DNA of 24,000 nt from Serratia sp. H1w. Lineage in GTDB: Bacteria; Pseudomonadota; Gammaproteobacteria; Enterobacterales; Enterobacteriaceae. The notes beneath the pieces are model-generated. The model did not search any database and was not told the DNA's origin. It was given only the letters and a program-made list of their open reading frames with translations. The stretch's first letter is position 1. The number at the start of each line of letters is the position of its first letter. This document shows positions 462 to 17,644 of this stretch, piece by piece. A program made the position numbers and the translations under genes. The stretch is from positions 12,630 to 36,629 of the forward strand of contig NZ_AYMQ01000004.1 of the NCBI RefSeq assembly GCF_000633355.1. The letters run 5' to 3'.

Positions 462-1178
462 ATGCGCAGTCAGACCGTAAACAATCAGGGCCATCTTCGC
501 CATCAACTGCAAAATGGCCTTATCGTCTCATGCCAACCGGTGCCCGGTAGCGCGATGGATAAACCAGAGATCGTTGCGGCAATGGCTAGCGCAGCCGTCG
601 ATGGCGGTGCCGTGGCTTTACGTATTGAAGGTATCAGCAATATCTGCGCCGTACGTCAGGTGGTCAAGGTGCCGATTATCGGTATCATCAAACGCGATCT
701 GGCCGATTCGCCGGTGCGGATCACTCCCTGGCTGGAAGATATTGACGCACTGAGCGAGGCTGGCGCAGACGTTATCGCTTTTGATGTTACCCGTCGGGCA
801 CGCCCGGTGTCGGTGGAAGAATTGTACCTGCGGGTGCGTGCCACCGGCCGTTTGGCGATGGCTGATGCCTCTTCTCTGGAAGACGGGCTGTTGGCACAGC
901 GGTTAGGCATCGATTTTATTGGTACCACCCTGTCGGGCTATATTGACCCGCCGGTACCCAACGAGCCGGATATCGAACTGGTCAGGCAGTTGGCGCAGGC
1001 CGGGTGTCTGGTGATTGCCGAAGGGCGCTATAACTCGCCAACCCTGGCGGCGATGGCCATCTCAGCGGGGGCGTGCGCCGTCACCGTAGGCTCAGCCATT
1101 ACCCGTATCGAACATATTTGCGGCTGGTTTCACACGGCGATTGCCCAACGTGAAGCCACCAAGCTGACAGAATTCTGA
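462..1178 (+). CDS. nanE: N-acetylmannosamine-6-phosphate 2-epimerase
   Basis: 238-aa ORF. Segments [58 protein letters not shown] and [15 protein letters not shown] closely match E. coli NanE. GGAG lies 9 nt upstream of the ATG. Confidence 0.92.
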
Positions 1179-1225
1179 TTGCGGCCTGACGCGGCCACCC
1201 ACTATGCAAAGTCCTAAGGATGTAC

Positions 1226-2128
1226 ATGAAAAAGCTTACAGGTTTGATTGCTGCCCCCCATACGCCTTTTGATGAACAAGGTGAGGTCAACTACCCGGTT
1301 ATCGATCAAATTGCCGAGCACCTGGTCAACGATGGGGTCACGGGCGTTTATGTTTGCGGCACCACTGGCGAAGGCATTCATTGCTCGGTTGAAGAGCGCA
1401 AAAAAATTGCCGAGCGCTGGGTCAAGGCCGCTCAGGGCAAACTGTGCATCACGCTGCACACCGGCGCGCTCAGCATCAAGGACGCGGTTGATTTATCCCG
1501 CCATGCGGAAACGCTGGATATTTTTGCTACCTCGGCCATCGGCCCTTGCTTCTTTAAGCCGGGCGACCTCAACGACCTGATCGCCTACTGCCAGGCGATT
1601 GCCGCTGCCGCACCGTCAAAAGGCTTCTATTACTACCATTCCGGCATGTCGGGGGTGAATCTGGATATGGAACAGTTCCTGATCAAAGCCGAATCACAAA
1701 TCCCCAACCTGTCAGGGATTAAGTTCAACAGCGCCGATCTGTATGAGTATCAGCGTTGTCTGCGCGTCAGCGACGGTAAATTTGATATCCCGTTCGGCGT
1801 TGATGAGCATCTGCCCGGTGGTCTGGCCGTGGGGGCGATCGGCGCGGTTGGCAGCACCTATAACTATGCGGCTCCGCTGTTCCATAAGATCATTGCCGAT
1901 TTCAACGCAGGCGACCAGGCTGCGGTAAAACAGGGCATGGACCAGGTTATCGCTTTGATCCGCGTTCTGGTTGAGTTTGGTGGCGTGGCGGCCGGTAAAG
2001 CAGCGATGCTGGTACACGGCATCGATGCGGGTAATCCGCGTCTGCCACTGCGCACACTGACCAAAGAACAGAAGCAAACGGTCGTTAGCAGAATGCGTAG
2101 CGCTATCGCGATCACTGCTCACCAGTAA
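1226..2128 (+). CDS. nanA: N-acetylneuraminate lyase, NPL/Vibrio type (DapA/NAL class I aldolase family)
   Basis: The ORF track starts at 1220 (MYMKKL). The second ATG at 1226 has better AGGA spacing and matches the MKKL.GLIAAPHTPF start of this family. Motifs: CGTTGEG, FYYYH, the Schiff-base Lys context SGIKFNS, FGVDE and GAVGSTYNY. It is closer to vertebrate NPL and Vibrio NanA than to E. coli NanA, and sits directly downstream of nanE. Confidence 0.88.
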   Translation: MKKLTGLIAAPHTPFDEQGEVNYPVIDQIAEHLVNDGVTGVYVCGTTGEGIHCSVEERKKIAERWVKAAQGKLCITLHTGALSIKDAVDLSRHAETLDIFATSAIGPCFFKPGDLNDLIAYCQAIAAAAPSKGFYYYHSGMSGVNLDMEQFLIKAESQIPNLSGIKFNSADLYEYQRCLRVSDGKFDIPFGVDEHLPGGLAVGAIGAVGSTYNYAAPLFHKIIADFNAGDQAAVKQGMDQVIALIRVLVEFGGVAAGKAAMLVHGIDAGNPRLPLRTLTKEQKQTVVSRMRSAIAITAHQ

Positions 2129-2148
2129 GTAAAAACGTGGAGTTGGTT

Positions 2149-2174
2149 AATAAGGGCGCTTTGACGTCCTTATT
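2149..2174. terminator. Stem-loop between the convergent nanA and B3/B4 genes (AATAAGGGCG-ctttga-CGTCCTTATT); no clear U-tract on either strand
   Basis: Inverted repeat read directly from the sequence. It overlaps the stop codon of the minus-strand gene (2170-2172). Confidence 0.3.
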
Positions 2175-2841
2175 CTTGGCTGATAGGTGTTACCATACTT
2201 CCAGGCCAAATGTTTTTTATCTGTTGTGTCAGCACCTGACTTAAAGCAGCAATGTCCGCTGTTGCCGTATCATGCATCGCCTCCATCACAATCAGTGCTT
2301 GGGTGGTGTATTGACTCACCGCAGAGTAACCACTTTGCCGATGTGTCCAGCGCCTGGCATGAGCATAGCCGGCAGCATCGGCAAAGATCACTTCACCCAC
2401 CGAAGGTGACTCGGTGGTACCAGAGAACGTTTGGTAAATCTCATTCCCCTGCGCATAGCACACCTGGAGGTCACCGTTGATCTTCTGTCGATCGAATACG
2501 GCAATTGGAATGGCGAAGGCCAGTGAAAGCGCATTGCATAAATCGATCAGTGGAAAAATGGTTGGTAACAATCCCTCTTTTCGTAGGCGGCGCAATAGTG
2601 ATTCCGCCGCGCAGCGATACTGGGTTGGTTTTAGTCCCATTAGCACGAAGGCGTGTCGCCAGGCTTGGATCTCTGTAAGGCCGCTTTCGGTACCACCACT
2701 TAAGCGGGCCACTGCCTGGCGGCTGAAGTCGATGACCGGCAGGCTGACATCTGCTTGCTGGTCGATCCCTTCAACCAGCAGGCAGCAAGATGCTAGAGCT
2801 GGGAAGGAGGAGCGTAGAGAATTGGCATAGTTAAAGTTCAT
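2170..2841 (-). CDS. Stand-alone B3/B4 (PheT-like tRNA-binding/editing fold) domain protein; function unknown
   Basis: 223-aa ORF. The segment PLIDLCNALSLAFAIPIAVFD parallels the conserved VDxxNxxxLxxGxPxHxFD core of the PheRS beta-subunit B3/B4 domain. Length is typical of stand-alone COG3382-type proteins. Confidence 0.7.
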   Translation of the reverse strand: MNFNYANSLRSSFPALASCCLLVEGIDQQADVSLPVIDFSRQAVARLSGGTESGLTEIQAWRHAFVLMGLKPTQYRCAAESLLRRLRKEGLLPTIFPLIDLCNALSLAFAIPIAVFDRQKINGDLQVCYAQGNEIYQTFSGTTESPSVGEVIFADAAGYAHARRWTHRQSGYSAVSQYTTQALIVMEAMHDTATADIAALSQVLTQQIKNIWPGSMVTPISQE

Positions 2842-2922
2842 GACTCACCATAAAAGCGTTAAGGTTATTTCCGCTACTCTGAAGCTCATTGTGTTCGGAG
2901 TCTTGAACGAAATTGCAGCCGT

Positions 2923-3723
2923 TCAGCATTGGCGTAGACGGCGGGCATAGAGGCCAGGAGAAATTCCCAGTGTGCGGGTAAACTGGCGTGTCATATGGCT
3001 TTGGTCGGCAAAACCTGCCGCTACGGCACTCTCTGCCAGTGAGGTGCCATTGGCAATCAACCGTCTGGCGAGCTGGATCCGGCGCTGGATCAGGTAAGCA
3101 TGTGGGGTGATGCCGATAGTTTGTTGAAAGCTGCGGATCAGTTGATAACAGCTGATGCCGCAGAGCTGGGACAGCTCGCCAAGGGAAACCGGGGTGGCGG
3201 GATCGTCGTCAAGACGCTGTTGGGCCAGACGTAGCGTTGGCATGGTTACCATCGGTTCACGATGGTGAAATAACCGAGCTAACAGCAGGAACAGGGACTG
3301 CTCTTGAGCCAGTGGACTGCCCGGTTGCGGTTGGGTGATACAGCTAAACAGGCTGTGAAAACAGCTGGCGACCCTGTTATCGCTCAGGACAGGTAATGAA
3401 AACTCACTACCTGATAATTTGCCTGTCCCCAGTTCGCTGGTGGCTTGCGCTATCAGCTCTGGCTCCAGATAGAGCATGCGCCATGAGCGAGGCCCTTCAC
3501 CCATGGGACGACCATCATGTACTTCACCGGGGTTGACCGTAATGATGTCACCCGATCCGGCTTCAACCAGCCCACGGCCACTGAGTGATTTTTGTGCCCC
3601 AGAGATGATCAGCCCGATGCCAAACTGGGTGTGAAAATGCTTTGGGTAACTGTGGCGAGTGGTGGCTATTACCGCTTCGATGCCCGGCACAGAAAAGGAT
3701 GGCATACTGAATTGGGATGGCAA
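2923..3723 (-). CDS. AraC-family transcriptional regulator with an N-terminal cupin-type sensor domain
   Basis: 266-aa ORF. The N-terminus is cupin-like (HSYPKHFH..GDIITVNPGEVHDG). The C-terminus has a dual HTH (SLGELSQLCGISCYQLIRSFQ ... AVAAGFADQSHMTRQFTRTLGISPGLY). It lies 81 bp upstream of, and on the same strand as, the B3/B4 gene. Confidence 0.85.
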   Translation of the reverse strand: MPSQFSMPSFSVPGIEAVIATTRHSYPKHFHTQFGIGLIISGAQKSLSGRGLVEAGSGDIITVNPGEVHDGRPMGEGPRSWRMLYLEPELIAQATSELGTGKLSGSEFSLPVLSDNRVASCFHSLFSCITQPQPGSPLAQEQSLFLLLARLFHHREPMVTMPTLRLAQQRLDDDPATPVSLGELSQLCGISCYQLIRSFQQTIGITPHAYLIQRRIQLARRLIANGTSLAESAVAAGFADQSHMTRQFTRTLGISPGLYARRLRQC

Positions 3724-3884: not shown

Positions 3885-4760
3885 ATGAAACATCCGCTGG
3901 TGGCCGTGTTGGCTCCGCTGCTCGATGATGGGCAGGGGATCCGGCAGGTTTATTTTGCCGGTAACCAACATCCGGCCCCGGAACTGGCCTATCAGGTAGG
4001 CTTTCCGCGCCTTGAGCTGGTGGTGGACGGGGAGCAGGAAATGGAGTGGGAAGGCAGCCAGGGGGCGCGGCATCGGCAGATATTGCTGCCGGGGGATGTG
4101 CTGTTTGTCCCAGCGCAAGGTTGGAACAGCCCGCGCTGGCAGCAACCCACTACCACGCTCAGCCTGTTGTTTGGCAAGCAGCAACTGGGATACAGCCTGC
4201 TGGGTTGGGACGGGGAAGGCACGCTGCTGCTGGGTAAAGACAATGTGGCGCGTCGCGGCCCGCGCGTAGGGTCGTTTATGTTGCAGGCGCTGAACGAACT
4301 CTCCTGGCATCAGAGCGATCAGCCCACCGCACGCTTTCTGGTGAAGGGTTTGTTGAGTCATGCGCTCGATCTGTTTGGCACCTCGGTGAGAACTGCCTCG
4401 CGTAGTCAGGCGCTGTTTGATGCGGTGCGCAGTCATCTGGAAGAGCATTATCGCGAGCCGTTAACCCGCGAGTCGGTGGCTCAGGCGTTCTATATCTCGC
4501 CCAATTACCTTTCTCACCTGTTCCAGAAGGCCGGTGGCATCGGTTTTAACGAATATCTTAATCACGTGCGGCTGGAGCAGGCCAAGCACCTGCTCAAACG
4601 CTATGACATGAAGGTGAAAGAGGTGGCGCACGCCTGCGGGTTTGTCGACAGTAACTATTTCTGCCGCCTGTTTCGCAAGAACACCGAGCGCTCCCCGTCG
4701 GAATACCGTGGCCAATACCACAGCGAGCTGGGCCCCTCTCCCACAGAGAAAGGGAATTAG
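3885..4760 (+). CDS. yijO: AraC-family transcriptional regulator, positional equivalent of E. coli YijO (convergent with frwD)
   Basis: The ORF track starts at 3804. The ATG at 3885 (MKHPLVAVLAP) is preceded by AAGGA and gives 291 aa. The C-terminal AraC HTH reads SVAQAFYISPNYLSHLFQK ... VAHACGFVDSNYFCRLFRKNTERSPSEYR. The symbol rests on synteny with the E. coli frw locus, not on a search. Confidence 0.7.
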   Translation: MKHPLVAVLAPLLDDGQGIRQVYFAGNQHPAPELAYQVGFPRLELVVDGEQEMEWEGSQGARHRQILLPGDVLFVPAQGWNSPRWQQPTTTLSLLFGKQQLGYSLLGWDGEGTLLLGKDNVARRGPRVGSFMLQALNELSWHQSDQPTARFLVKGLLSHALDLFGTSVRTASRSQALFDAVRSHLEEHYREPLTRESVAQAFYISPNYLSHLFQKAGGIGFNEYLNHVRLEQAKHLLKRYDMKVKEVAHACGFVDSNYFCRLFRKNTERSPSEYRGQYHSELGPSPTEKGN

Positions 4761-4792
4761 TCCAGCGTCGTTGGCGGGTAATGCGGCACTGC

Positions 4793-4817
4793 GTAGGGGC
4801 AGCTGCATGCTGCGCCC
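4793..4817 (+). repeat. REP-type palindromic element (GTAGGGGCAGCTGCATGCTGCGCCC)
   Basis: Member of a family with further copies at 14643, 15672, 15721 and 17338. It is an imperfect palindrome centred on GCATGC. Confidence 0.7.
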
Positions 4818-4860
4818 GTGTTAAAACCAGATGTGGGAGTAAAATTTTGGCACGGTCGGT

Positions 4861-4893
4861 CCCCTCTCCTTGGGGAGAGGGTTAGGGTGAGGG
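4861..4893 (-). repeat. Hairpin repeat, copy 1 (reverse complement CCCTCACCCTAACCCTCTCCCCAAGGAGAGGGG), ending 3 nt from the frwD stop codon
   Basis: Near-identical copies lie at 13527-13561 and 13653-13686. The internal stem is CCCTCTCC/GGAGAGGG. Spurious ORFs across it read ..PLTLTLSPRRGD../..GEGWGEG.. Confidence 0.8.
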
Positions 4894-4896
4894 AGA

Positions 4897-5241
4897 TTAC
4901 ACCACGCGGATATGTGTTTCCTGGGGGGAGGCTGCGGCCTTGCGTACCGCACTGAGCGCCTTCTCCGGCGTACGCAGAAAGGTGTTGATGCCGATCTGCA
5001 CGCAACGGTGATGCTCAAAACGCTCGCTTTCCGCCAGCAGGATGTCGCTGATCAACAGCACCACGTCGGCCTGGGCCAGATCGTCCGCCGTCAGCGAGTT
5101 TTCAATACCTAATGCCCCCTGCGTTTCTACTTTGACCGGCCATTTCTCCTGCGCACACAGTTTTTCCAGCCGTTCGGCAGCCATATAGGTATGGGCGACC
5201 CCGCTGATACAGGCCGTAACCGCTACGAGTTTTATCGTCAT
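4897..5241 (-). CDS. frwD: PTS fructose-like EIIB component (second EIIB of the locus)
   Basis: 114-aa ORF. The N-terminal VAVTACISGVAHTYMAAE carries the PTS_IIB(Fru) phospho-Cys motif. AAGAGG RBS. It is the last gene of the frwC-frwB-pflD-pflC-frwD order, as in E. coli. Confidence 0.85.
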   Translation of the reverse strand: MTIKLVAVTACISGVAHTYMAAERLEKLCAQEKWPVKVETQGALGIENSLTADDLAQADVVLLISDILLAESERFEHHRCVQIGINTFLRTPEKALSAVRKAAASPQETHIRVV

Positions 5242-5262
5242 ACCAGCCTCTTTATGTTCTGT

Positions 5263-6159
5263 TCAACCGCCAATGATGACCCGGTAACCCGCCTGCTGTG
5301 CCATCGCCTGCAAGGGGGCAACCTCTTGTTCTGTCGGGGCCGCGACCCCGCGCATGGCATATTCACGCCCTAAAAGAGTGTATTTTGCCTCGCCATACTG
5401 GTGAAAAGGCAACAGGTGGATCTCTTGTAGCCCAAAAGGTGCCAGGAACGCCAGCACCTGCGCCATATTCTCCGTGCTCAAAGTGTAGCCGGGTATTAAC
5501 GGCAGGCGAGGGATCAGATTAACTCCGTGCTGTACCAGCGCGGTAAAGTTTGCCAACACCCGTGGCAGATTGATGTTCAACTGACTTTTAGCGGCGTTGG
5601 CATCCATGATCTTCAGGTCAAACAGGATCTGATCGCAGTGTTCCGCCAAGGCCAATACGTGGGCTTGCGAGGCATCCCCGGCGGTTTCGACGGCGGTATT
5701 GATACCTAGTGCCTGTAAGCGCTGCAATAGCTGGGTAGCAAACTCGGCCTGCATCAGCACTTCACCGCCGGAGAGCGTCACCCCACCGCCGGAAGTGCGA
5801 TAAAACACCTCATCCTTGAGAATTTGCTGTAACAGCGCCTCCAGGGTAATGTTTTGGCCGATCAGCTCCATCGCTCCGCTTGGACACTCTTGCGCATCGT
5901 TCAGGCAGGGCTGGCAACGCAGGCACTTGGCCTTGCGCCGCACGCGGTGGATCTTGCCCGACATCGACTCTGGGTTAGCACACCATGGGCAGCTATGCGG
6001 GCAGCCTTTGAAAAACACCACGGTGCGGATGCCCTGCCCATCATTCAGCGAATAACGCTGAATATTGAAAATGCGGGCCTGCGGCTCGGTGTGAGTTGCC
6101 CGGGAAAACCCGGGCGTGATCAGGCTACAGTTGATGCGCTGTACGGCGGATGATGTCAT
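5263..6159 (-). CDS. pflC: Glycyl-radical enzyme activating enzyme (radical SAM), PflC type
   Basis: The ORF track starts at 6210. The ATG at 6159 (MTSSAVQRINCS) has a strong AAGGAG RBS (complement of 6167-6172) with 7 nt spacing, giving 298 aa. The radical-SAM motif CPHSCPWC (CX3CX2C) is encoded at 5980-6003. An extra Cys-rich segment KCLRCQPCLNDAQECP follows. The start overlaps the pflD 3' end by 35 nt. Confidence 0.9.
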   Translation of the reverse strand: MTSSAVQRINCSLITPGFSRATHTEPQARIFNIQRYSLNDGQGIRTVVFFKGCPHSCPWCANPESMSGKIHRVRRKAKCLRCQPCLNDAQECPSGAMELIGQNITLEALLQQILKDEVFYRTSGGGVTLSGGEVLMQAEFATQLLQRLQALGINTAVETAGDASQAHVLALAEHCDQILFDLKIMDANAAKSQLNINLPRVLANFTALVQHGVNLIPRLPLIPGYTLSTENMAQVLAFLAPFGLQEIHLLPFHQYGEAKYTLLGREYAMRGVAAPTEQEVAPLQAMAQQAGYRVIIGG

Positions 6160-8422
6160 CCTGGATCTCCTTCGACAGCTCCACGAAGAATGCGCTATAG
6201 CCGGCGACACGCACCACCAGCCCGGCGAAGTCCTGCGGCCTGGCCTGCGCTTCCTTCAGGGTTTCGGCATTCACGACGTTGAACTGCACATGCTGCAACT
6301 TGAGCTTGGTAAAGGCGCCGAGGAAATCCGCCAGTTTGTTCAGCCCCTGCTGGCCTTCCAGCGTGCTTGGGGTGAACTTCACGTTCAACAGCGTGCCGTT
6401 GGAAAGCAGGTAGTTATCCAGCTTGCTCACCGACTTCAGTACCGCCGTTGGCCCTTGGGCATCCTGGCCGAGCATCGGCGATAGCCCGCCGTCCGCCAAC
6501 TGTTCCCCGGCATAACGTCCATCCGGCGTGGCTCCCACCACCGCTCCCAATGGCACGTGGGCGGAAACGGTATAAGACCCAGGCGTAAACTGCCCCCCAC
6601 GCGGGTTGCGGTACTGCTCCACTTCTTTGCAGTAAAATCGCAGCAGATCGGCGCTGATCAGGTCGACTTCATCGATGTCGTTGCCGTATTTGTCGAAGCG
6701 ATTGATCAGCCGTGCGCGGATCTTTTCCCCTTCCGGCGTGGCGAAGTTGGCCTTCAGCGTGGCCAGCAGTTCGTCAAAACTCAGGCGCTGCTGATCGAAA
6801 ACCAGGCCTTTCAGGGCATACAGCGAGTCGCTCAGGTTGGCGATGCCGATGCCTTGTACGCCGGAGAAGTTATAGCGTGCGCCGCCTTCGGTGATGTCTT
6901 TACCGTTTTGCAGGCAGTCATCGATAAAGGAGGACAACAGCGGTACCGGAGCCCAGTCGCGGTGGCCGATATCGCAGATATTGCTGCCTTCGGCCATCAG
7001 CCGGACGTAATGACGGATTTTTTCGCGGATTTGATCCAGCAACTGCGGGTAGGTGAGGCTGGTATTGCCTTCGTTATCCAGCAACGTCAGTTCCATCACC
7101 TTCAGCAGGTTGAACATGGCAATGTCGTGCAGGCCGTAGGTACGCCCAGGGATCGACAGCTCAACGCAGCCCACCACCGCATAATCACGCGCATCTTCCA
7201 GCGAGACGCCACGGTTGAGGAACGCCGGAACCACCACTTCGTCGTTGAAGATTTGTGGAATGCCGGTGCCGAGGCGGATGGTTTCGGCGGTTTTCAGCAG
7301 GAATGGGCGATCGATAAATTCATTGACCCTTACGCCCAGGTTTGGCTGCGGCAGGCGGATATTCTGGTAGGCATCCAGGCACAGGAAGGACAGCACGTTG
7401 ACCGCGCTGCGGCCGGTTTCCGTCAGGCCGCCCAGCAAAATGGTGTAGCCGGTCGGAAAGCCAGCGAAATAACGCGCACTGGAGGTAGAGCGCAACAGCA
7501 CGATGTCGTTGCACTTCACCCACAGGCTTTCCAGCAGTTCCTTCAGGAAGGCCGGATCCTGTCCCTGATTGAGGGAGGCTTGATAGAACGGCAGCATGTA
7601 CTGATCGAAACGGCCGAGCGACAGTGAGCTGGCGTTGGATTCATACTGCAAAATGATGTTCATGTACCAGAACAGCTGGCAGGCCTGATAGAAGTCCTGC
7701 GGCTTATGGCGGGCGTTGTGGCTGGCGATCTCGGCGATCCGCAGCAGCTCGGCGCGGCGAGTTTCATCGTTGCACTGTTGCACCATCTGACGGGCCAGGC
7801 TGGCATAACGCAGGATGTGGCGCTGCGAGGCTTGCAACAGCAGCAGTGCGGCGGTGTAGAACGCATTATCTGGTTGTTGCTCAACGTGGCTTTGCAACTC
7901 GGCCAGCAGGCTATCCAGGCCGTTATTCAACAGGCGTGGGTAATCGATGATGATATGTCCCTGACCCTTGTCCGTCTGGTTGACGCTGAAAATCTGGGTC
8001 TGGGTAGCGGCTTTAACTTCTTCGGACATCTGGCCGTTGATGAAATCCTTCATCGAGCGCTGTTCCCAGTAAGGATAAAGCTGCTCGCGGTACACCTGCT
8101 TGTCGGCTTCGGAAATGGTGAAGCGATCCTGCGGGCGCGTTGGGAAAGCATCCAACTCTTTCAGCAGCCAGTAAGGGTCCATCTCTGGCGAGACGATCCC
8201 GGCACGCGGCTTCACCGTGCGGTTACCGGCGATCAGCTCGTCTTCCCGCAGGGTAATTGCTACGTGATCGAGGATATAGGCGGTGGCCTTGGCACGGCGG
8301 ATAATGGTGGGTTCTCCCTCGGTCTGCCGGTGGCTGGCGGTATAGAGCAGTGCGCGTTCGAGCGAAATTTCACGCGGGGCGGAGAACAGGGCGGCTTTGA
8401 GACGTTCGATCCGGGAGATCAT
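6125..8422 (-). CDS. pflD: Glycyl-radical enzyme, PflD type (annotated historically as formate acetyltransferase 2 but eliminase-like)
   Basis: The ORF track starts at 8467. The ATG at 8422 (MISRIERLKAALF) is preceded by AAGGAAA and gives 765 aa, the length I recall for E. coli PflD. The C-terminal glycyl-radical fingerprint is VVRVAGYSAFF (Gly codon 6200-6202). The thiyl-loop motif is VVGCVELSIPG (Cys codon 7166-7168, Glu 7160-7162). Confidence 0.92.
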   Translation of the reverse strand: MISRIERLKAALFSAPREISLERALLYTASHRQTEGEPTIIRRAKATAYILDHVAITLREDELIAGNRTVKPRAGIVSPEMDPYWLLKELDAFPTRPQDRFTISEADKQVYREQLYPYWEQRSMKDFINGQMSEEVKAATQTQIFSVNQTDKGQGHIIIDYPRLLNNGLDSLLAELQSHVEQQPDNAFYTAALLLLQASQRHILRYASLARQMVQQCNDETRRAELLRIAEIASHNARHKPQDFYQACQLFWYMNIILQYESNASSLSLGRFDQYMLPFYQASLNQGQDPAFLKELLESLWVKCNDIVLLRSTSSARYFAGFPTGYTILLGGLTETGRSAVNVLSFLCLDAYQNIRLPQPNLGVRVNEFIDRPFLLKTAETIRLGTGIPQIFNDEVVVPAFLNRGVSLEDARDYAVVGCVELSIPGRTYGLHDIAMFNLLKVMELTLLDNEGNTSLTYPQLLDQIREKIRHYVRLMAEGSNICDIGHRDWAPVPLLSSFIDDCLQNGKDITEGGARYNFSGVQGIGIANLSDSLYALKGLVFDQQRLSFDELLATLKANFATPEGEKIRARLINRFDKYGNDIDEVDLISADLLRFYCKEVEQYRNPRGGQFTPGSYTVSAHVPLGAVVGATPDGRYAGEQLADGGLSPMLGQDAQGPTAVLKSVSKLDNYLLSNGTLLNVKFTPSTLEGQQGLNKLADFLGAFTKLKLQHVQFNVVNAETLKEAQARPQDFAGLVVRVAGYSAFFVELSKEIQDDIIRRTAHQL

Positions 8423-8455
8423 CACATTTTCCTTTTGTGCGGTAATGGGGGCGGG

Positions 8456-8478
8456 AAAACCCGGCACGTGGTGCCGGG
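8456..8478 (-). terminator. Intra-operon terminator-like hairpin between frwB and pflD
   Basis: Perfect 8-bp GC-rich stem CCCGGCAC/GTGCCGGG (8460-8467 / 8471-8478) with a 3-nt loop. On the transcribed (minus) strand it is followed by TTTTCCC. Confidence 0.4.
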
Positions 8479-8490
8479 CTAGCCTTACGG

Positions 8491-8811
8491 TCAGGCCTTT
8501 TGCGCTAAATGAGCGGCAATTTTTTCCATGATGGCATCGGCACGTTTTACCGCGTCGCTGATGGCTACGCGCACCACGGTTTTCCCTTTAAAGCGTTCTT
8601 CAAACTTGATGCCGATATCCTTGGTCAGGATCACCACGTCGGCAGCGGCCACGTCTTCGGCCGTCAGTTCGTTTTCCAGGCCGATAGAGCCTTGGGTTTC
8701 CACCTTGCACTGCCAGCCTTGAGCTTTGGCGGAACGTTCAATGGCTTCGGCAGCCATGTAGGTATGGGCAACGCCAGATGGGCAAGCGGTAACAGCGATA
8801 ATCATAGTCAT
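8491..8811 (-). CDS. frwB: PTS fructose-like EIIB component
   Basis: 106-aa ORF, the same length as E. coli FrwB. The N-terminal IAVTACPSGVAHTYMAAE carries the phospho-Cys motif. GAGGAA RBS. Confidence 0.88.
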   Translation of the reverse strand: MTMIIAVTACPSGVAHTYMAAEAIERSAKAQGWQCKVETQGSIGLENELTAEDVAAADVVILTKDIGIKFEERFKGKTVVRVAISDAVKRADAIMEKIAAHLAQKA

Positions 8812-8838
8812 GGCAAATTCCTCAAAAGTATTCGTTGT

Positions 8839-8860
8839 CTCTCAGGCCGTAGCCTGAGGG
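8839..8860 (-). other. Intercistronic stem-loop between frwC and frwB
   Basis: Inverted repeat CTCTCAGGC-cgta-GCCTGAGGG read from the sequence, with no adjacent U-tract. It could act as an mRNA stabiliser or processing site. Confidence 0.3.
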
Positions 8861-8869
8861 CGTATTGAT

Positions 8870-9946
8870 TCAGTTAATTTCGAAATCCAGATCCAGATCG
8901 TCCTGGGCGGCTTTGGTGGCCTGTTTCTTGGCGGCAAAACTTTTCAGCAGGTTAACCAGCAGGGCGGTGACTACCATGCCGACCAGCAGCGCAGCAACGT
9001 AGCCGAGCTTGCCTTCAACCACTGGCAGCACAATCAACCCACCCCAACCGGCGTAGCACTGGGCACCGACCAATGCGGCGGTCACGGCGGCACAGGCGGA
9101 ACCAATCATGATGGAAGGGATAACGCGCAGCGGATCGGCGGCGGCGAACGGGATGGCCCCTTCGGTAACGCCGACGCAGCCCATCAGCAGCGCGGCTTTA
9201 CCCGCTTCGCGCTCTTCCGGGGTGTAGTATTTACGGCCAATCAGCGTGGCGAAGCCCAGACCGAGCGGTGGGGTGGCGATGGCAACGGCCGCGATGGCAA
9301 CCACGGAGTAGACGCCCTGAGCGACGCAGATCAGCATAAAGGCGTAGGCCACCTTGTTGACCGGGCCACCCATGTCAAACGCCAGCATCAGGCCCATGAT
9401 GATCGCCAGCACCACGATGCTGCCTTGCTGCATACCTTGCAGCCAGTGGGTCAGACCATTGGTCAGTGCGCCAACCGGTTCGCCCAGCCCCCACATCATG
9501 ATGCCCGCGGTGAGCAGGGTACCAATGATGGGGATCACGAAGATCGGCATCACCGAACGCAGGATCTTCGGCACCGGGATCTTCTTGAGATAGAACACAA
9601 TAATGCCGCCCAGCAGGCCAGCTATGATCGCCCCGAAGAAGCCAGCCCCGAAGGATGCGCCCACCCAGGCACCAATTGCCGAAGGAGCCAGCGCGGAGCG
9701 ATCTGAAATGGAGTAACCAATATAGGCCGCGAGGAAAGGCACCATCAGCGTTAACCCGGCCACGCCGATATCGAACAGTTTTTTCAGGTTAGGGTCGGTT
9801 GCGGCATCGGGTACTGCCCCTTTACCGTACAACATCACGGAGATAGCCAGCAAAATGCCACCGGCGACCACAAACGGGATCATATGGGAGACGCCGGTCA
9901 TTAAATGCTGGCGTGTGTTTCTTAGAATATTGAGTAGGTCTTTCAT
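8870..9946 (-). CDS. frwC: PTS fructose-like EIIC permease component
   Basis: 358-aa highly hydrophobic ORF. PTS_EIIC(Fru) family features include GGILLA, IAGLLGG and the GVTEGAIPFAAADP loop. It is the first gene of the minus-strand operon. GGGAG RBS. Confidence 0.9.
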   Translation of the reverse strand: MKDLLNILRNTRQHLMTGVSHMIPFVVAGGILLAISVMLYGKGAVPDAATDPNLKKLFDIGVAGLTLMVPFLAAYIGYSISDRSALAPSAIGAWVGASFGAGFFGAIIAGLLGGIIVFYLKKIPVPKILRSVMPIFVIPIIGTLLTAGIMMWGLGEPVGALTNGLTHWLQGMQQGSIVVLAIIMGLMLAFDMGGPVNKVAYAFMLICVAQGVYSVVAIAAVAIATPPLGLGFATLIGRKYYTPEEREAGKAALLMGCVGVTEGAIPFAAADPLRVIPSIMIGSACAAVTAALVGAQCYAGWGGLIVLPVVEGKLGYVAALLVGMVVTALLVNLLKSFAAKKQATKAAQDDLDLDFEIN

Positions 9947-10163
9947 CGTTCACTCCCTGGCCGCGACCAGCGTGCTTCTGAGATAAAACCACCAGGGAAT
10001 GACCCTTGATGGATAAAGGTTGTTGGCTATCACAATAGGCATCCGTCGCCACTATCAACAGTGGATAAAATTGCCATTTACTGGATTTTTGTATTGTCAG
10101 GAGAAAAGTGCGATCTAACTCAAAGTGTGCGACAGAAGAAACCGGGCTTGAGGGCGCAGGCTT

Positions 10164-10179
10164 TGTGAGCGACATCGCA
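10164..10179. promoter_or_regulatory. Candidate CRP-binding core (TGTGA-gcgaca-TCGCA) in the frwC/ptsA divergent control region
   Basis: 9 of 10 core positions match TGTGA-N6-TCACA. The position relative to any transcription start is unknown. Confidence 0.3.
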
Positions 10180-10306
10180 TTTATGCCGTCAGGATACATT
10201 TGTCCAGTGTTTGACATTTTTATCCGATAGCCCTGGGCCGCGCTGCGCTTCTATCCTTGTGACAAACCGGTGTTGTTCACCGCTGCTTTGGTATGAGGAA
10301 AGAGTG

Positions 10307-12808
10307 ATGGCGAAAATTGTGACGTTTACCTGCGTGCTGCCCAACGGGGTGCATGCCCGCCCAGCCAGCCATATCGAAACCCTGTGCAACGGTTTCCGTT
10401 CCCGCTTTGAATGGCACAACGCGCGCAGTGGCCGTTGCGGTGATGGCAAAAGCGTGTTGTCGCTGATCGGGACCGATACTTTGCTGGGCGACGAGTGCCG
10501 GATCACCATCGAAGGGGAAGATGAGCAGGCCGCATTTGAGCGCCTGACCCAGTTTATCGAACATGAATTCCCGCACTGTGACGAAGCGCTGCCGCAGGTG
10601 AACGACCAGGCCGAGCAGGAACCTATCCCGCAGTCTTTAGCTAATCTGAACCCAACGTTGGTACGGGCCCGTTCCGTCAACCAGGGCACTGCCAATGGCA
10701 AATTGGTGCATCTGGCGCGGGTCGATTTAAACGCTCTGTCTTTGCCGCCCGCTCACTCTATTGAACAGGAGCAGCAGCAACTGGCCGAAGGGCTAACGCG
10801 CTTTGGCAAGGCGTTGGATTTGCAACTGATGGGCGGTAACGGTACTACCACGGCGGTGCTGGAAGCGCACCGTTCATTACTGCGTGACGGCGGATTCCGT
10901 CAACACCTGCTCGACGGTGTGCTGTCAGGGGAAAGTTGCGCCGCCGCGATTGTGGCCACCGCAGCCCACTTCAGCCAACAGTTGGCGCAGTCTGCCAGTG
11001 CCTATCTGCGGGAGCGCGAACTGGATATTCGTGATGTCAGCTTCCAGCTGTTACAGCAAATTTATGGCGAGCAGCGCTTCCCGGCACAACAGGCGCTGAG
11101 TGTCGACAGCATCTGTATCACCGATGAGCTGACGCCCAGCCAATTCCTGGAACTGGATAAACGCTACTTGAAAGGCCTGTTGTTGGGCAGCGGTGGCAGC
11201 ACCTCGCATACGGTGATCCTGGCGCGCTCGTTCAACATTCCTACCCTGGTTGGCGTTGATGCCGCAGCCATGCTGCCATATCTGCATCAATCGGTGCAGA
11301 TCGACGGCGATCTTGGGCTGGTGGCCTGCGATCTCAGCGAACCGGTACGTCGTTACTATCAGCAGGAGCAGTGGCTGAGTGAGCAGATCCGCAGCCAGCA
11401 AAGCGCCTATCTGGATCAGCCGGGGCGCACTGCCGACGGCGTAAGAATGGAAGTGGCCGCCAATATCGCCCATGCGGTAGAAGCAGAAGCCGCCTTCAGC
11501 AACGGTGCCGAGGCGGTGGGCCTGTTCCGTACCGAAATGCTGTATATGGATCGCCTGACCGCGCCTTCCGAAGATGAGCTGTACAACATTTATTGCCAGG
11601 CGGTGGAAGCGGCCGCAGGCAAGACGATTATCGTGCGTACCATGGACATCGGCGGCGACAAGCCGGTGGATTACCTGAACATCCCGGCCGAAAATAACCC
11701 GTTCCTCGGCTACCGGGCGGTACGTATCTATCAGGAATTCCTGCCGCTATTCCGTACTCAGTTGCGCTCGATCCTGCGTGCTTCGGCACATGGTCCGCTG
11801 AAGATCATGATCCCGATGATCTCCTCGATGGAAGAGATCCTGTGGGTGAAGGATCAACTGGCCGAAGTGAAGCAATCGTTGCGTGCCGGGCAGATCCCGT
11901 TCGACGAAAAAATTCCGCTCGGCATCATGCTGGAAGTGCCTTCGGTGCTGTTTATCATTGACCAGTGCTGTGAGGAGATCGACTTCTTCAGCATCGGTAG
12001 CAACGACCTGACGCAGTACCTGCTGGCGGTGGATCGCGACAACGCCAAGGTCATCAAACATTACAACAGCCTGAACCCGGCGTTCCTGCGTGGGTTGGAT
12101 CATGCGGTGCGTGAAGTCCACCGCCACGGCAAATGGATCGGCCTGTGTGGCGAACTGGGGGCCAAAGGCTCGGTGCTGCCGCTGCTGGTGGGTATGGGGC
12201 TGGATGAGATCAGTATGAGCGCCCCTGCTATTGCCGCCACCAAAACCCGTCTGGCCAAGCTGGACAGCCGCGAATGCCGTTTGTTGCTCAACCGGGCCAT
12301 GGCCTGCCGGACGTCGCTGGAAGTGGAACACCTGCTGGCTCAGTTCCGCATGGAGCAAAGCGATGCTCCGCTGATCACGCCGGAATGTATCGCCCTGGGG
12401 GCCGATTGGCGCAGCAAGGAAGAGGTTATCAAAGGCATGGCGGATAACCTGCTGCTGGCTGGGCGCTGCCGCTACCCACGTAACCTTGCCGCCGACCTGT
12501 GGGCGCGTGAGGCGGTATTTTCCACCGGGCTGGGTTTTGGCTTTGCCATCCCACATACCAAATCTGAGCATATCGAACAGTCCACCATCAGCGTAGCCAA
12601 GCTGGCGCAGCCGGTCGTCTGGGGCGATGAAGAGGCCCAGTTCGTCATCATGCTGACCCTCAATAAACATGCCGCCGGGGACCAGCATATGCGCATTTTC
12701 TCCAAGCTGGCGCGGCGCATCATGCATGAAGGTTTCCGAGACGCCCTGGTGAACGCGGCATCGGCCCAACAGGTAGAGGCGTTGCTGAAACAAGAGCTTG
12801 AACTGTAA
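10307..12808 (+). CDS. ptsA: Multiphosphoryl transfer protein: fused HPr-like, Enzyme I and EIIA(Fru/Ntr-type) domains
   Basis: The ORF track starts at 10211. The ATG at 10307 (MAKIVTFTCVLPNGVHARPAS) follows GGAAAGAG and gives 833 aa, the length I recall for E. coli PtsA. Three phospho-site contexts are visible: HPr His in GVHARPAS (codon 10352-10354), EI His in GGSTSHTVILARSFNIPTLVG, and EIIA His in GFGFAIPHTKS. The EI C-terminal IGLCGELG is also present. Confidence 0.9.
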   Translation: MAKIVTFTCVLPNGVHARPASHIETLCNGFRSRFEWHNARSGRCGDGKSVLSLIGTDTLLGDECRITIEGEDEQAAFERLTQFIEHEFPHCDEALPQVNDQAEQEPIPQSLANLNPTLVRARSVNQGTANGKLVHLARVDLNALSLPPAHSIEQEQQQLAEGLTRFGKALDLQLMGGNGTTTAVLEAHRSLLRDGGFRQHLLDGVLSGESCAAAIVATAAHFSQQLAQSASAYLRERELDIRDVSFQLLQQIYGEQRFPAQQALSVDSICITDELTPSQFLELDKRYLKGLLLGSGGSTSHTVILARSFNIPTLVGVDAAAMLPYLHQSVQIDGDLGLVACDLSEPVRRYYQQEQWLSEQIRSQQSAYLDQPGRTADGVRMEVAANIAHAVEAEAAFSNGAEAVGLFRTEMLYMDRLTAPSEDELYNIYCQAVEAAAGKTIIVRTMDIGGDKPVDYLNIPAENNPFLGYRAVRIYQEFLPLFRTQLRSILRASAHGPLKIMIPMISSMEEILWVKDQLAEVKQSLRAGQIPFDEKIPLGIMLEVPSVLFIIDQCCEEIDFFSIGSNDLTQYLLAVDRDNAKVIKHYNSLNPAFLRGLDHAVREVHRHGKWIGLCGELGAKGSVLPLLVGMGLDEISMSAPAIAATKTRLAKLDSRECRLLLNRAMACRTSLEVEHLLAQFRMEQSDAPLITPECIALGADWRSKEEVIKGMADNLLLAGRCRYPRNLAADLWAREAVFSTGLGFGFAIPHTKSEHIEQSTISVAKLAQPVVWGDEEAQFVIMLTLNKHAAGDQHMRIFSKLARRIMHEGFRDALVNAASAQQVEALLKQELEL

Positions 12809-12817
12809 TTCATTCTT

Positions 12818-12833
12818 GGGCGCTGCGGCGCCC
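12818..12833 (+). terminator. Short GC hairpin (GGGCGC-tgcg-GCGCCC) followed by TTCATATTT, between ptsA and fsaB
   Basis: Read directly from the sequence. It lies 10 nt after the ptsA stop and 26 nt before the fsaB ATG. It may be a partial terminator or a processing/stabilising element. Confidence 0.35.
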
Positions 12834-12859
12834 TTCATATTTAGTCTTGAGGAGCAATT

Positions 12860-13525
12860 ATGGAACTCTATCTGGATACTGCTGATATCAATGCGGTGAA
12901 ACGTCTCGCACGGGTATTGCCATTGCAAGGGGTGACGACCAACCCAAGCATTGTGGCCGCATCACGCACGTCACTATGGGAAGTGCTGCCTGCGTTGCGC
13001 GATATCATCGGTGGGGAAGGGAAGCTGTTTGCCCAGGTGATGGCCGCCAAGGCCGATCAGATGGTAGAAGAAGCGGTATTGCTCAACCGACGCGTTCCTG
13101 GCCTGGTGGTGAAAGTGCCGGTAACCGGTGAAGGACTGGCCGCTATCAAAACCCTGCGTGGCATGGGCATTCCAACGTTAGGTACGGCGGTTTATGGGGC
13201 GGCACAGGGGCTGCTTTCTGCTCTGGCGGGGGCGGAGTATGTGGCACCTTACGTCAACCGGGTAGATGCTCAGGGCGGCAATGGCATTGCTACCGTGCAA
13301 GAATTGCAGCATTTGCTGGAACTGCATGCTCCGCAGGCCAAAGTGCTGGCAGCCAGCTTCAAAACCCCACGGCAGGCGCTGGAGTGTCTGCTGGCAGGTT
13401 GTGAAGCTATTACCTTACCGGTCGATGTTGCCGAGCAGTTTATCAGTGCTCCGGCGGTGCAGGCGGCGGTAGAAAAGTTTGAGCACGATTGGCACGGCGC
13501 GTTTGGTACCTTGGCGCTGAGCTAA
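12860..13525 (+). CDS. fsaB: Fructose-6-phosphate aldolase 2 type (transaldolase-fold class I aldolase, TalC/FsaB)
   Basis: 221-aa [20 protein letters not shown], the Schiff-base Lys context [44 protein letters not shown] and [22 protein letters not shown] are near-identical to E. coli FsaB. GAGGAG RBS. Confidence 0.92.
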
Positions 13526-13526: not shown

Positions 13527-13686
13527 CCCCTCACCCTAACCCTCTCCCACAGGGAGAGGGGACAGAATGAGCCACATCTTGGCTACGAAACTCTACATAT
13601 ATATCAAGGTAATACAGGCAGACTCTAAACTTGAATTCAGCACGGTACGGCTCCCTCTCCCTGTGGGAGAGGGTTGGGGTGAGGGG
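13527..13686. repeat. MITE-like composite: two ~34-bp hairpin repeats in inverted orientation (13527-13561 and 13653-13686, 1 mismatch) flanking a 91-bp AT-rich spacer
   Basis: Left arm: CCCCTCACCCTAACCCTCTCCCACAGGGAGAGGGG. Reverse complement of right arm: CCCCTCACCCCAACCCTCTCCCACAGGGAGAGGG. The composite fills essentially the whole fsaB-ysgA intergenic region. A third copy lies at 4861-4893. Confidence 0.85.
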
Positions 13687-13692
13687 AGATTG

Positions 13693-14529
13693 TTACTTCA
13701 CACCCGGCACACCATGCTGGCTGAACCACGCCAACATACGCTGCCAACCGTCGGCGGAAGCCTCTGCGTTATAGCTTGGCCGGTAATCGGCGTGGAAAGC
13801 GTGGCCCGCTTCGGGATACACCACGATTTCCGCATCGGCATTGGCCGCACGGATTGCCTGGCGCATGGTTTCCACCGTTTCTTGTGGAATGCTGCCGTCC
13901 TGACCCCCGTATAAACCGAGTACCGGCGCCGAAAGACCGATGGCGATATCAACCGGATGCTTGGGCGAATTCAGGGTTTTCTCCCCCACCAGCTTGCCAT
14001 ACCAGGCCACCGCCGCCTTCAGTTGCGGGTTATGCGCGGCATACAGCCAGGTGATACGTCCACCCCAACAAAAGCCGGTGATCGCCAACTTGCTGGCGTC
14101 GCCGCTGTGGCGCGTTGCCCAATGCGCAGCGTGGTCCAGATCGGCCAGAACCTGGCTGTCTGGCACTTTGCTGACCAGGTTTTTTACCAACTCACTGACT
14201 TCGCTGTACTCTCTGGCATCTCCCTGGCGGAAATAGAGTTCTGGAGCGATGGCCAGATAACCCTGTTTCGCCAGGCGACGGCACAAATCCTGAATGTGTT
14301 CATGCACGCCAAAGATTTCCTGCACCACCAACACGATCGGGAATGGCCCCTGATGGTGGGCCGGTTTGGCGATATAGGCTGGCAGATCGTCCCCTTGCGA
14401 TGGGATGGTGGTTTCCCCTACGTGAATATCCTGTTCATCGGTCAGGATAGTCGAGGTAGCCAACGGTGCGACGGCCGGGGTGAATCCCCCTTTGGCCTGT
14501 TTTAATGTCATTTGTTGTTCTGTTTTCAT
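13693..14529 (-). CDS. ysgA: Dienelactone hydrolase family protein (carboxymethylenebutenolidase-like)
   Basis: The ORF track starts at 14601. The ATG at 14529 (MKTEQQMTLKQ) is favoured, giving 278 aa, but the start is uncertain. The DLH nucleophile motif is ITGFCWGG and the His context is EAGHAFHADY. It sits divergently upstream of udp, as E. coli ysgA does. Confidence 0.8.
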   Translation of the reverse strand: MKTEQQMTLKQAKGGFTPAVAPLATSTILTDEQDIHVGETTIPSQGDDLPAYIAKPAHHQGPFPIVLVVQEIFGVHEHIQDLCRRLAKQGYLAIAPELYFRQGDAREYSEVSELVKNLVSKVPDSQVLADLDHAAHWATRHSGDASKLAITGFCWGGRITWLYAAHNPQLKAAVAWYGKLVGEKTLNSPKHPVDIAIGLSAPVLGLYGGQDGSIPQETVETMRQAIRAANADAEIVVYPEAGHAFHADYRPSYNAEASADGWQRMLAWFSQHGVPGVK

Positions 14530-15922: not shown

Positions 15923-16705
15923 ATGACCACTCAGATTTCACTCCATCCCTCACTTGCGCCGCTAGACGGTGGTATCAATTTCCGTGATTTAGGCGGTAAC
16001 ACCGTGGCCGATGGTCGCCGTATCAAACGCGGGCTGCTGTTTCGTTCCGGCGCTCTGGATCGGTTGAGCGAAAACGACTGTAGCTACCTGGCCAAGATGC
16101 CGATGCGCTCGGTGCTGGATTACCGTGATATTGACGAAGTGCAGGCCAAACCGGACGTGTTATGGGCGGGAGCCGATTATTATCACGTGCCAGCCAACCC
16201 GCTGAGCAGTGAAGTCAACGCCAACCTGGATAAACTCACTGACGAGACGCTGGCCAAGTTTGATGCCCGGGCCTTTATGCTGGAGCTGTATCGCCGCTTG
16301 CCATTCAATAACGCTGCCTATCGCCAACTGGCGCAGCTGTTGGCCCAGCCTGAAGGTGGTGCGATTGTGCAGCACTGCGCAGTAGGCAAAGACCGCACCG
16401 GCGTCGGTTCTGCGATGGTACTGCTGGCTCTGGGGGCGGATGAGGCCACGGTGATGGAAGACTATCTGCTAACGCAAATCACGCTGGCGAGCTTCCGTGA
16501 TCATATGTTGGAACAGCTCTCTAGCCGGTTGAACGACGCCTCGGTAGCGCAGTTTGCCTATGTACTCGGTGCTCGTGAAGAGTTTCTGGTCACCGCGCTG
16601 GGCTGCATTCGTCAGCAATATGGCTCTGCCGATCGCTGGTTGGAGGCCGAATATGGGCTGGGGCAAAGCCAGCGCGAGGCAATCCAGGCGTTCTATCTCG
16701 AATAA
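15923..16705 (+). CDS. Cys-based protein-tyrosine/dual-specificity phosphatase-like protein (Y_phosphatase3-like), cytoplasmic
   Basis: 260-aa ORF with no signal peptide. The CX5R P-loop is HCAVGKDRTG. The N-terminal GGINFRDLGG is typical of this family. AAGGA RBS. Confidence 0.78.
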   Translation: MTTQISLHPSLAPLDGGINFRDLGGNTVADGRRIKRGLLFRSGALDRLSENDCSYLAKMPMRSVLDYRDIDEVQAKPDVLWAGADYYHVPANPLSSEVNANLDKLTDETLAKFDARAFMLELYRRLPFNNAAYRQLAQLLAQPEGGAIVQHCAVGKDRTGVGSAMVLLALGADEATVMEDYLLTQITLASFRDHMLEQLSSRLNDASVAQFAYVLGAREEFLVTALGCIRQQYGSADRWLEAEYGLGQSQREAIQAFYLE

Positions 16706-16792
16706 TGGCAGCATGTTTAGCTCAGGTTTAACCCGCGCAGCAGGGCATTGCGTATCCTTGGATCAGGATCCATTCCCTAGGGGAGAAAATCA

Positions 16793-17323: not shown

Positions 17324-17337
17324 ACCCATTCTCAATA

Positions 17338-17361
17338 GTAGGGGCGCTGCATGCTGCGCCC
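17338..17361 (+). repeat. REP copy (GTAGGGGCGCTGCATGCTGCGCCC) 15 nt after the dedA-family stop
   Basis: Same family as the other REP copies. It is followed by TTCTTTAT, so it may double as a weak terminator. Confidence 0.7.
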
Positions 17362-17516
17362 TTCTTTATCTGGCCACAACCGGATGCTTTTTAAATTATT
17401 TGGGATAGAGTGAGAAATTGATCACGAATTTATCCTTATCTGGCGATTTTTAATTCCCTTATTTTTTCAGCAGTGTTACTTTCCTAACAAGTGGATTGTT
17501 ACTGTGAATAAACAGG

Positions 17517-17566
17517 CAAAACCCAAACCCGTCGACAAACTAATGTCATGGGTTTGGGTTTTTTTT
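17517..17566 (+). terminator. Strong Rho-independent terminator with no obvious cognate gene
   Basis: 11-bp stem AACCCAAACCC (17519-17529) / GGGTTTGGGTT (17549-17559), followed by a run of 9 T (17558-17566). It lies about 195 nt downstream of the nearest upstream stop codon and 79 nt upstream of the next ATG. Confidence 0.7.
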
Positions 17567-17644
17567 TGCCTCTAATTTACCGGGCGATCGACAAATGATT
17601 AAAAAATAGTCCTGTAGGCATCATTTTTCACTAAGGAATAGTCA

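Follow-up and report, generated by a model that had tools for sequence, protein, structure and literature searches.

Two gene clusters of Escherichia coli, both organized around a glycyl-radical enzyme (GRE), are the closest described counterparts of the locus considered here. These are the frwCB-pflDC-frwD / ptsA-fsaB(-gldA) locus (b3945-b3954; structures 8YJO and 8ID0) and the ybiW-ybiY / fsaA locus (structure 8ID7), the former representing the 1,5-anhydromannitol branch of what is called 'radical-mediated glycolysis' or 'anhydroglycolysis' and the latter the 1,5-anhydroglucitol-6-phosphate branch. According to section 5.7 of a 2026 review on glycyl radical enzymes (PMC13450708, citing Ma et al. 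2024), YbiW catalyzes C-O cleavage of 1,5-anhydroglucitol-6-phosphate and PflD that of 1,5-anhydromannitol-6-phosphate, both yielding 1-deoxyfructose-6-phosphate, which is split into glyceraldehyde-3-phosphate and hydroxyacetone by downstream aldolases. In the mechanism given there, a cysteine thiyl radical takes the hydrogen from C2, a glutamate deprotonates the C2 hydroxyl, the ring C-O bond is cleaved heterolytically, and the hydrogen is returned. Section 5.1 of a second review, from 2025 (PMC12441222, citing Ma et al. 2024) describes both pathways as starting with phosphorylation by the phosphotransferase system (PTS), by which E. coli and many gut bacteria grow anaerobically on the sugar. 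The chemistry of PflD and YbiW originates from Ma et al. 2024 (JACS 146:26187) and is given here as these two reviews present it. A 24,000-nucleotide stretch of the Serratia sp. H1w genome (assembly GCF_000633355.1, contig NZ_AYMQ01000004.1, positions 12,630 to 36,629; hereafter the window) carries, at window positions 3885-13525, what is on sequence grounds very probably the Serratia (fonticola-group) ortholog of the E. coli frwCB-pflDC-frwD / ptsA-fsaB 1,5-anhydro-D-mannitol module. By analogy with E. coli, 1,5-anhydromannitol is the presumed substrate in Serratia as well. The pathway, its enzymes, their structures, and their wide distribution are already published, and the window holds a plain ortholog of a solved system.

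The module comprises seven catabolic genes and one regulator arranged as two divergent units (Table 1), not the eight catabolic genes and one regulator counted in a preliminary description made from the DNA letters and their open reading frames (ORFs). The individual genes named there, together with their order and orientation, were all found intact in their places by ORF map, NCBIfam, and Pfam, including the AraC-type regulator at the far end, a yijO-like gene convergent with frwD. All eight reading frames were full length and, upon motif inspection, all catalytic and phospho-carrier residues were kept. Gene content, order, and orientation matched the E. coli locus, as did the convergent yijO. 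The stretch shared approximately 76% DNA identity with the E. coli locus, itself carried by 5389 of 5426 complete E. coli genomes, and protein identities ranged gene by gene from 62 to 85%. Curated NCBIfam cut-offs were passed by six of the proteins (FrwD, PflC, PflD, FrwB, FrwC, and the aldolase), with models based on the E. coli proteins for the first five and a subfamily-level FSA model for the aldolase. The colinearity with the E. coli K-12 locus that the preliminary description had proposed stands for the shared gene order and orientation and fails at gldA, which is eighth in the E. coli locus and for which tblastn gave no match anywhere in the window. The position 3' of the aldolase gene is instead occupied by a convergent ysgA-like dienelactone hydrolase gene.

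To place the GRE, bit scores and sequence identities were ranked against PflD, YbiW, glycerol dehydratase, CutC, HypD, and pyruvate formate-lyase (PFL). The window PflD scored 1599 bits against the PflD model NF007437 (cut-off 1109), with 512 bits for the HypD model and 502 bits for the CutC model, and reached only 122 bits against the pyruvate formate-lyase equivalog TIGR01255 (cut-off 994). The closest solved structures were E. coli PflD (8YJO, 1490 bits) and the PflD homolog 8ID0 (1063 bits), followed at far lower scores by glycerol dehydratase (656 bits) and YbiW (484 bits), with the CutC and HypD enzymes also far behind. Identity was 84.6% to E. coli PflD and 37.8% to YbiW, while the activase was 62% identical to E. 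coli PflC and 37.1% identical to YbiY. The values for YbiW and YbiY are of the same level as those between the E. coli paralogs, and do not indicate orthology to that pair. With 1599 bits against 122 and this identity ranking, the enzyme thus groups with PflD by model, structure, and identity scores, outside the authentic pyruvate/2-ketobutyrate formate-lyases, the grouping that the preliminary description had set in advance as speaking against its reading. Similarities to the ybiW-ybiY / fsaA locus are limited to a GRE isomerase with a CxE loop, the type of activase, and an FSA partner; E. coli ybiW has neither an adjacent frw-type PTS nor an AraC-type regulator, and its GRE and activase are only 38% and 37% identical to those of the window.

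Conserved residues of the GRE and its activase were in agreement with this assignment. Catalytic loops of PFL enzymes contain an adjacent Cys-Cys pair, while eliminase and isomerase GREs contain one Cys plus a Glu. The window PflD, which encodes PFL-like and Gly_radical domains (Pfam), lacks the adjacent pair and has instead the loop GCVE (Cys419, Glu421); both this loop and the glycine loop RVAGYS (Gly741) are the same as in E. coli. HMMER aligned Cys419 and Glu421 with Cys431 and Glu433 of 8ID0, to which the published mechanism assigns the catalytic roles. Furthermore, the protein keeps 443 of the 461 positions (96%) that are identical between 8YJO and 8ID0, a retention used as a proxy for substrate-contact residues. 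PflC scored 474 bits against NF007483 (cut-off 326) and contains Fer4_12 and Radical_SAM domains (Pfam) and the cluster motif CPHSCPWC (CX3CX2C). The pflC start is most likely at 6159, where the translation MTSSAVQR... parallels MTSSAGQR... of E. coli behind an AAGGAG ribosome-binding site, resulting in a pflD/pflC overlap of 35 nt, equal to that in E. coli.

The remaining components form a private PTS. FrwC (NF007787, 680 bits, cut-off 426) and FrwB (NF007783, 197 bits, cut-off 135) were 82% and 85% identical to their E. coli counterparts, and FrwD (NF007747, 181 bits, cut-off 153) was 66% identical. The AC-x2-G-x-AHT motif is kept in both stand-alone Enzyme IIB (EIIB) proteins, with Cys10 in FrwB and Cys11 in FrwD. 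PtsA, 71% identical to E. coli PtsA, is an Enzyme I (EI) family match with HPr and EIIA(Fru) at its two ends (NCBIfam), with the Pfam domains PTS-HPr at residues 6-85, PEP-utiliser N, mobile, and C across 123-653, and PTS_EIIA_2 at 689-829. Its candidate active residues are His16 in GVHARPA, the HPr motif, His301 in GGSTSHTVILA, and His750 in AIPHT. These His and Cys motifs are read as phospho-transfer sites, and the aldolase lysine as the Schiff base residue, in line with established knowledge of the PTS and FSA families. Within the module, no gene other than ptsA encodes an EIIA, HPr, or EI for the FrwBCD components. Models of the canonical fructose PTS scored below their cut-offs, with 251 bits against 793 for the FruA IIBC model (NF007984) and 73 against 302 for FruB (NF008319), and a profile scan of the window proteins detected no 1-phosphofructokinase (pfkB-type kinase) within the module.

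The aldolase passed the FSA model (NF009296, 385 bits, cut-off 306) and contains a TAL_FSA domain (Pfam), with Lys85 located within VVKVPVT. Its identity as an FSA-type aldolase was borne out, but the name fsaB used in the preliminary description is positional only since the protein is equally close to E. coli FsaA (71.8%) and FsaB (70.9%). This equidistance is one of the differences from the E. coli locus, along with a Yersiniaceae host of approximately 56% G+C and longer intercistronic spacers containing hairpins. The ptsA-fsaB spacer (12809-12859) measures 51 nt vs. 11 nt in E. coli. Likewise, the frwC-frwB spacer (8812-8869) measures 58 nt vs. 14 nt and has a GC-rich hairpin at 8839-8860. 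The hairpins in these two spacers could serve in mRNA processing or stability.

Table 1. Features of the frw-pfl locus and its control region (window coordinates).
Feature	Position	Strand	Remarks
yijO-like AraC-family regulator	3885-4760	+	291 aa, convergent with frwD
frwD, second stand-alone PTS EIIB	4897-5241	-	114 aa
pflC, glycyl-radical enzyme activase (radical SAM)	5263-6159	-	298 aa, start revised to 6159
pflD, glycyl-radical C-O lyase (isomerase), probable 1,5-anhydromannitol-6-phosphate type	6125-8422	-	765 aa
frwB, PTS EIIB	8491-8811	-	106 aa
frwC, PTS EIIC permease, fructose family	8870-9946	-	358 aa
Divergent control region, mirrored pair of promoter modules	9947-10306		between frwC and ptsA
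Candidate -10 TATTGT, frwC operon promoter	10032-10037	-	CCTATTGT block conserved in all aligned genera
Putative YijO operator toward frwC	10058-10094	-	core TACA-N4-TCCAGT-N3-TG
CRP site TGCGATCTAACTCAAA, upstream of frwC promoter	10109-10124		aligns with E. coli TGCGATCCGCCTCATA
Second CRP-like site TGTGAGCGACATCGCA, upstream of ptsA promoter (predicted)	10164-10179		9/10 positions of TGTGA-N6-TCACA
Putative YijO operator toward ptsA	10194-10231	+	same core motif as 10058-10094
Candidate -10 TATCCT, ptsA-fsaB promoter	10252-10257	+	conserved block CTcTTAT.CTgt
ptsA, fused HPr-Enzyme I-EIIA(Fru)	10307-12808	+	833 aa
GC-rich hairpin GGGCGCTGCGGCGCCC then weak T tract	12818-12833	+	terminator-like scan, between ptsA and fsaB
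FSA-type (transaldolase-fold) aldolase, 'fsaB' by position	12860-13525	+	221 aa

The predicted metabolism follows the route described for E. coli. Phosphoenolpyruvate would phosphorylate the EI portion of PtsA (His301), and the phosphoryl group would pass via HPr (His16) and EIIA (His750) to Cys10 of FrwB and/or Cys11 of FrwD, with the anhydro-alditol imported via FrwC and released as its 6-phosphate. PflC, with S-adenosylmethionine (SAM) and a [4Fe-4S] cluster, would place the radical on Gly741 of PflD. The Cys419 thiyl would then abstract the C2 hydrogen of the substrate while Glu421 deprotonates the C2 hydroxyl, breaking the ring C-O bond and, after return of the hydrogen, producing 1-deoxyfructose-6-phosphate. 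Cleavage by the FSA-type aldolase via a Lys85 Schiff base would provide glyceraldehyde-3-phosphate to glycolysis along with hydroxyacetone. Expression would proceed from two mirrored activator-dependent promoters requiring CRP-cAMP and YijO, the latter presumably bound to the sugar or sugar phosphate. The general logic put forward in the preliminary description, namely a private phosphorelay, a radical enzyme, and an aldolase split, is borne out by orthology, the kept residues, and the reviews, and the biochemistry it gave for PflD and YbiW, through 1-deoxyfructose-6-phosphate to cleavage by FSA, agrees with the cited sections of PMC13450708 and PMC12441222.

One genome per species was scanned with PflD, and 309 loci were found to encode a relative. 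Comparisons were performed on the best 80 of these 309 species loci, with tblastn of the module and flank proteins used for context. Among these 80, the closest PflD proteins were those of a Serratia metagenome-assembled genome (MAG; 99%), Serratia fonticola (98%), and S. aquatilis (94%). In DNA sequence, the window shared 96% identity with the Serratia MAG and 90-91% with S. fonticola. Loci of Enterobacteriaceae (Escherichia, Citrobacter, Enterobacter, Lelliottia, Buttiauxella, Atlantibacter, Pluralibacter, and others) follow the order ppc-(eptC)-yijO-frwD-pflC-pflD-frwB-frwC / ptsA-fsaB-gldA. The Yersiniaceae loci, which comprise the Serratia fonticola group, S. aquatilis, Rahnella, Ewingella, and Enterobacillus and have the same module in most cases, lie between metE and udp (19/19), with ysgA present in all but one. 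gldA was absent from all 19 Yersiniaceae loci according to tblastn and present in most Enterobacteriaceae loci, while yijO was linked to the module in most loci carrying the frw PTS genes. The module thus occupies a metE / ysgA-udp site in Yersiniaceae, including the window, and a ppc/eptC / gldA site in Enterobacteriaceae (eptC/ppc / gldA-yijF in E. coli). Its presence at different chromosomal sites in two families supports its description as a self-contained island. Judging from sequence comparison, the module lies in a variable junction in Serratia, and homology of the window to its closest relatives breaks off at 3797, a short way upstream of yijO.

In a 16-genus alignment, strongly conserved blocks stand out in the 360-bp spacer that separates frwC from ptsA. 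This spacer holds a mirrored pair of approximately 100-bp modules, one directed toward each operon. Each module consists of a CRP-type sequence T(G/T)TGA-N6-TCGCA, 13 nt, a box of approximately 38 bp, approximately 20 nt, and a -10-like hexamer. The box has the form (T/A)TACA-N4-TCCAGT-N3-TG...TTTnTC(C/A), in which TTTnTC(C/A) recurs as a direct repeat after approximately 20 bp. Exactly one copy of the core motif per orientation was present in the spacers of 65/65 species. In the window there were two matches vs. 0.07 expected, and the motif was confined to this spacer in 1.7 Mb of related loci, with the two boxes approximately 120 bp apart. The E. coli locus has the same mirrored CRP and operator region with this distance between boxes. 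The second CRP-like site, upstream of ptsA, is also conserved across genera and lies 13 nt from its operator box, as in the mirror copy. Relative to the predicted -10 hexamers, the CRP sites are centered at approximately -92 and the boxes extend from approximately -70 to -33. In araBAD, tandem AraC half-sites overlap the -35 and CRP binds near -93. The predicted geometry is alike in its tandem direct-repeat operators, CRP position, and adjacent AraC-family gene, and because of this geometry the conserved boxes are interpreted as putative YijO operators. It differs in that two mirrored copies serve divergent operons and in that a distal looping site was not identified. The positions of the -10 hexamers and promoters are likewise candidates derived from sequence conservation. 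Over 287 aa, the YijO-like regulator shared 63% identity with its E. coli counterpart, with HTH_18 and HTH_AraC in its C-terminal part and no Pfam match above threshold in its N-terminal 172 aa.

Published data on CRP binding are consistent with this arrangement. The E. coli sequence TGCGATCCGCCTCATA is listed as a CRP ChIP-seq site for ptsA/frwC in ETEC H10407 (PMC4287617), and ptsA<>frwC is among the CRP Genomic SELEX targets (PMC3105977). A sigma-54 promoter, suggested by TTGGCA in the E. coli box, was considered and rejected since Serratia has TTGACA and Rahnella TTGTCA in its place, so that TGGCA is not conserved, and since the distance to a GC element does not fit. An Rfam scan at gathering threshold detected no riboswitch or known leader in the whole window, and a simple terminator scan detected no convincing terminators after frwD or fsaB, where hairpins resembling repetitive extragenic palindromes (REPs) fill the spacers.

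Several findings weigh against an unmodified 1,5-anhydromannitol module. The window PflD deviates at 18 positions where 8YJO and 8ID0 agree, and FrwD (66%) and PflC (62%) are the parts of the module that have diverged most from E. coli. A sigma-70 consensus scan detected no promoter in the divergent spacer, and one only in the 11 kb scanned, which keeps the promoter assignments at the level of candidates; the lack of a consensus match is read as activator dependence. Furthermore, gldA, co-transcribed with ptsA-fsaB in E. coli (PMC6643234), is missing in the window, meaning that the final step is either a different one or has its gene at another site. There is an outside chance that the Yersiniaceae module, relocated to the metE/ysgA junction and lacking gldA, is functionally diverged, acting on another, perhaps plant-derived, anhydro or deoxy sugar, or with another fate of hydroxyacetone such as excretion or non-orthologous reduction, e.g. 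by a BudC-like dehydrogenase. Also improbable is that the same radical ring-opening is applied in Serratia to 1,5-anhydroglucitol-6-phosphate or to some other anhydro or deoxy sugar phosphate derived from plants or soil. The 18 deviating positions and the different, gldA-free chromosomal context would be compatible with such a shift, but PflD is far closer to E. coli PflD (85%) than to the glucitol-specific YbiW (38%), its Cys and Gly loops are the same as in E. coli, and FrwC and FrwB remain 82-85% identical.

A separation of the two operons, in which ptsA-fsaB would function mainly in dihydroxyacetone and triose metabolism via the reversible FSA reaction, apart from the radical operon, is unlikely: overexpressed E. 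coli fsaB and gldA aid growth on dihydroxyacetone, and they share an operon with ptsA, but the wild-type E. coli genes are not induced on dihydroxyacetone (PMC6643234). In the window gldA is absent, the FrwBCD components have PtsA as their sole module-encoded EIIA, HPr, and EI, and the mirrored control region, conserved in 65 species, implies co-regulation of the two operons. The routine annotation is scarcely credible as an alternative. RefSeq and NCBIfam names ('formate C-acetyltransferase', 'PTS fructose-like') would make the locus a fructose-type PTS beside a pyruvate/2-ketobutyrate formate-lyase and its activase, and hide the pathway as the preliminary description had anticipated; against these names stand the TIGR01255 (122 vs. 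994 bits) and FruA IIBC equivalog (251 vs. 793) scores, the GCVE loop in place of Cys-Cys, the published function of PflD as a C-O lyase, and the lack of a 1-phosphofructokinase gene in the cluster. It is just as hard to credit that the locus has become a cryptic remnant in decay and out of use. The E. coli locus was long regarded as cryptic, and that of the window is situated in a variable region bordered by REP-like repeats, but the eight frames are full length with catalytic residues intact, and coding and regulatory sequence is strongly conserved across two families.

Environmental Yersiniaceae (Serratia, Rahnella, Ewingella) thus share the 1,5-anhydromannitol pathway genes with gut Enterobacteriaceae, in intact form and under purifying selection, while annotation pipelines still mislabel the pathway as formate acetyltransferase and fructose PTS. 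As an ortholog of a published system, matched at 96-99% in public Serratia genomes, the locus itself adds little. By-products of specialist relevance are the model of the control region, with its mirrored CRP site and putative YijO operator conserved in 65 species, and the occurrence of the Yersiniaceae module at a different chromosomal site without gldA. This relocation, the equal distance of the aldolase from FsaA and FsaB, and the model of conserved twin promoters are the modest points that remain.

Further observations concern the surroundings of the module. The left flank (462-3723) encodes a nanE-like gene, a DHDPS-family aldolase (NanA-like, below cut-off), a B3/4-domain protein, and a second AraC-type gene. 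None of the four is present in the closest S. fonticola-group loci, in which yijO lies immediately beside metE-metR, and S. aquatilis has only the AraC and B3/4 genes in common with the window. REP-like hairpins of the form CCCTCTCCC-N3-GGGAGAGGG were located at 13527-13686, 4734-4754, and 4862-4881 (three matches vs. 0.01 expected). In the interval from the aldolase gene to ysgA, two copies occur in extended form (…GGGTGAGGGG) as an inverted pair, and the spacer at 13527-13707 gave no alignment with S. fonticola strains. Another copy lies inside the last yijO codons and seems to supply the C-terminal extension of YijO.

Variations in module content were observed among the compared loci (designated by L numbers). 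A BudC-like short-chain dehydrogenase (NF052558, 380 bits; 14555-15319 in L008) is encoded between yijO and metE in ten Rahnella species and could, speculatively, reduce hydroxyacetone in place of the missing gldA. Kluyvera and Pseudocitrobacter loci (L023, L027-L031, L035, L039, L040, L045, L058, L059) contain pflD-pflC without the frw PTS, ptsA, or the aldolase; their PflD is 84-86% identical to that of the window, and none of these loci has the operator core motif. In the Kluyvera locus L027, pflD-pflC has as neighbors a gene for a PaeX-like acetylesterase, two small ORFs lacking an assignment, and an AraC gene resembling yijO (approximately 55%), next to hyp-fhlA. The module is present in Yersinia similis and the Klebsiella oxytoca group (together L052, L062, L066, L068) and in Ewingella (L007), but no fsaB homolog was found by tblastn after ptsA in these loci. 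FrwD is approximately 55% identical in those Klebsiella and Yersinia loci, and the Klebsiella loci have an AraC gene of approximately 53-55% identity in opposite orientation.

On the right side of the window, the region from udp to rmuC (15923-19981) contains tyrosine-phosphatase-family, DedA/VTT, and histidine phosphatase genes as well as a 440-aa ORF with a weak UidC-porin match. At the same udp-rmuC place, E. coli SMS-3-5 has another insert with a tricarboxylate transporter and galactonate genes. E. coli SMS-3-5 also has an unrelated island by ysgA (L082, 1-5734), encoding fdrA, carbamate kinase, DUF1116, DUF2877, and cysteine hydrolase, which suggests that in Enterobacterales the junction on the ysgA side has received insertions repeatedly.

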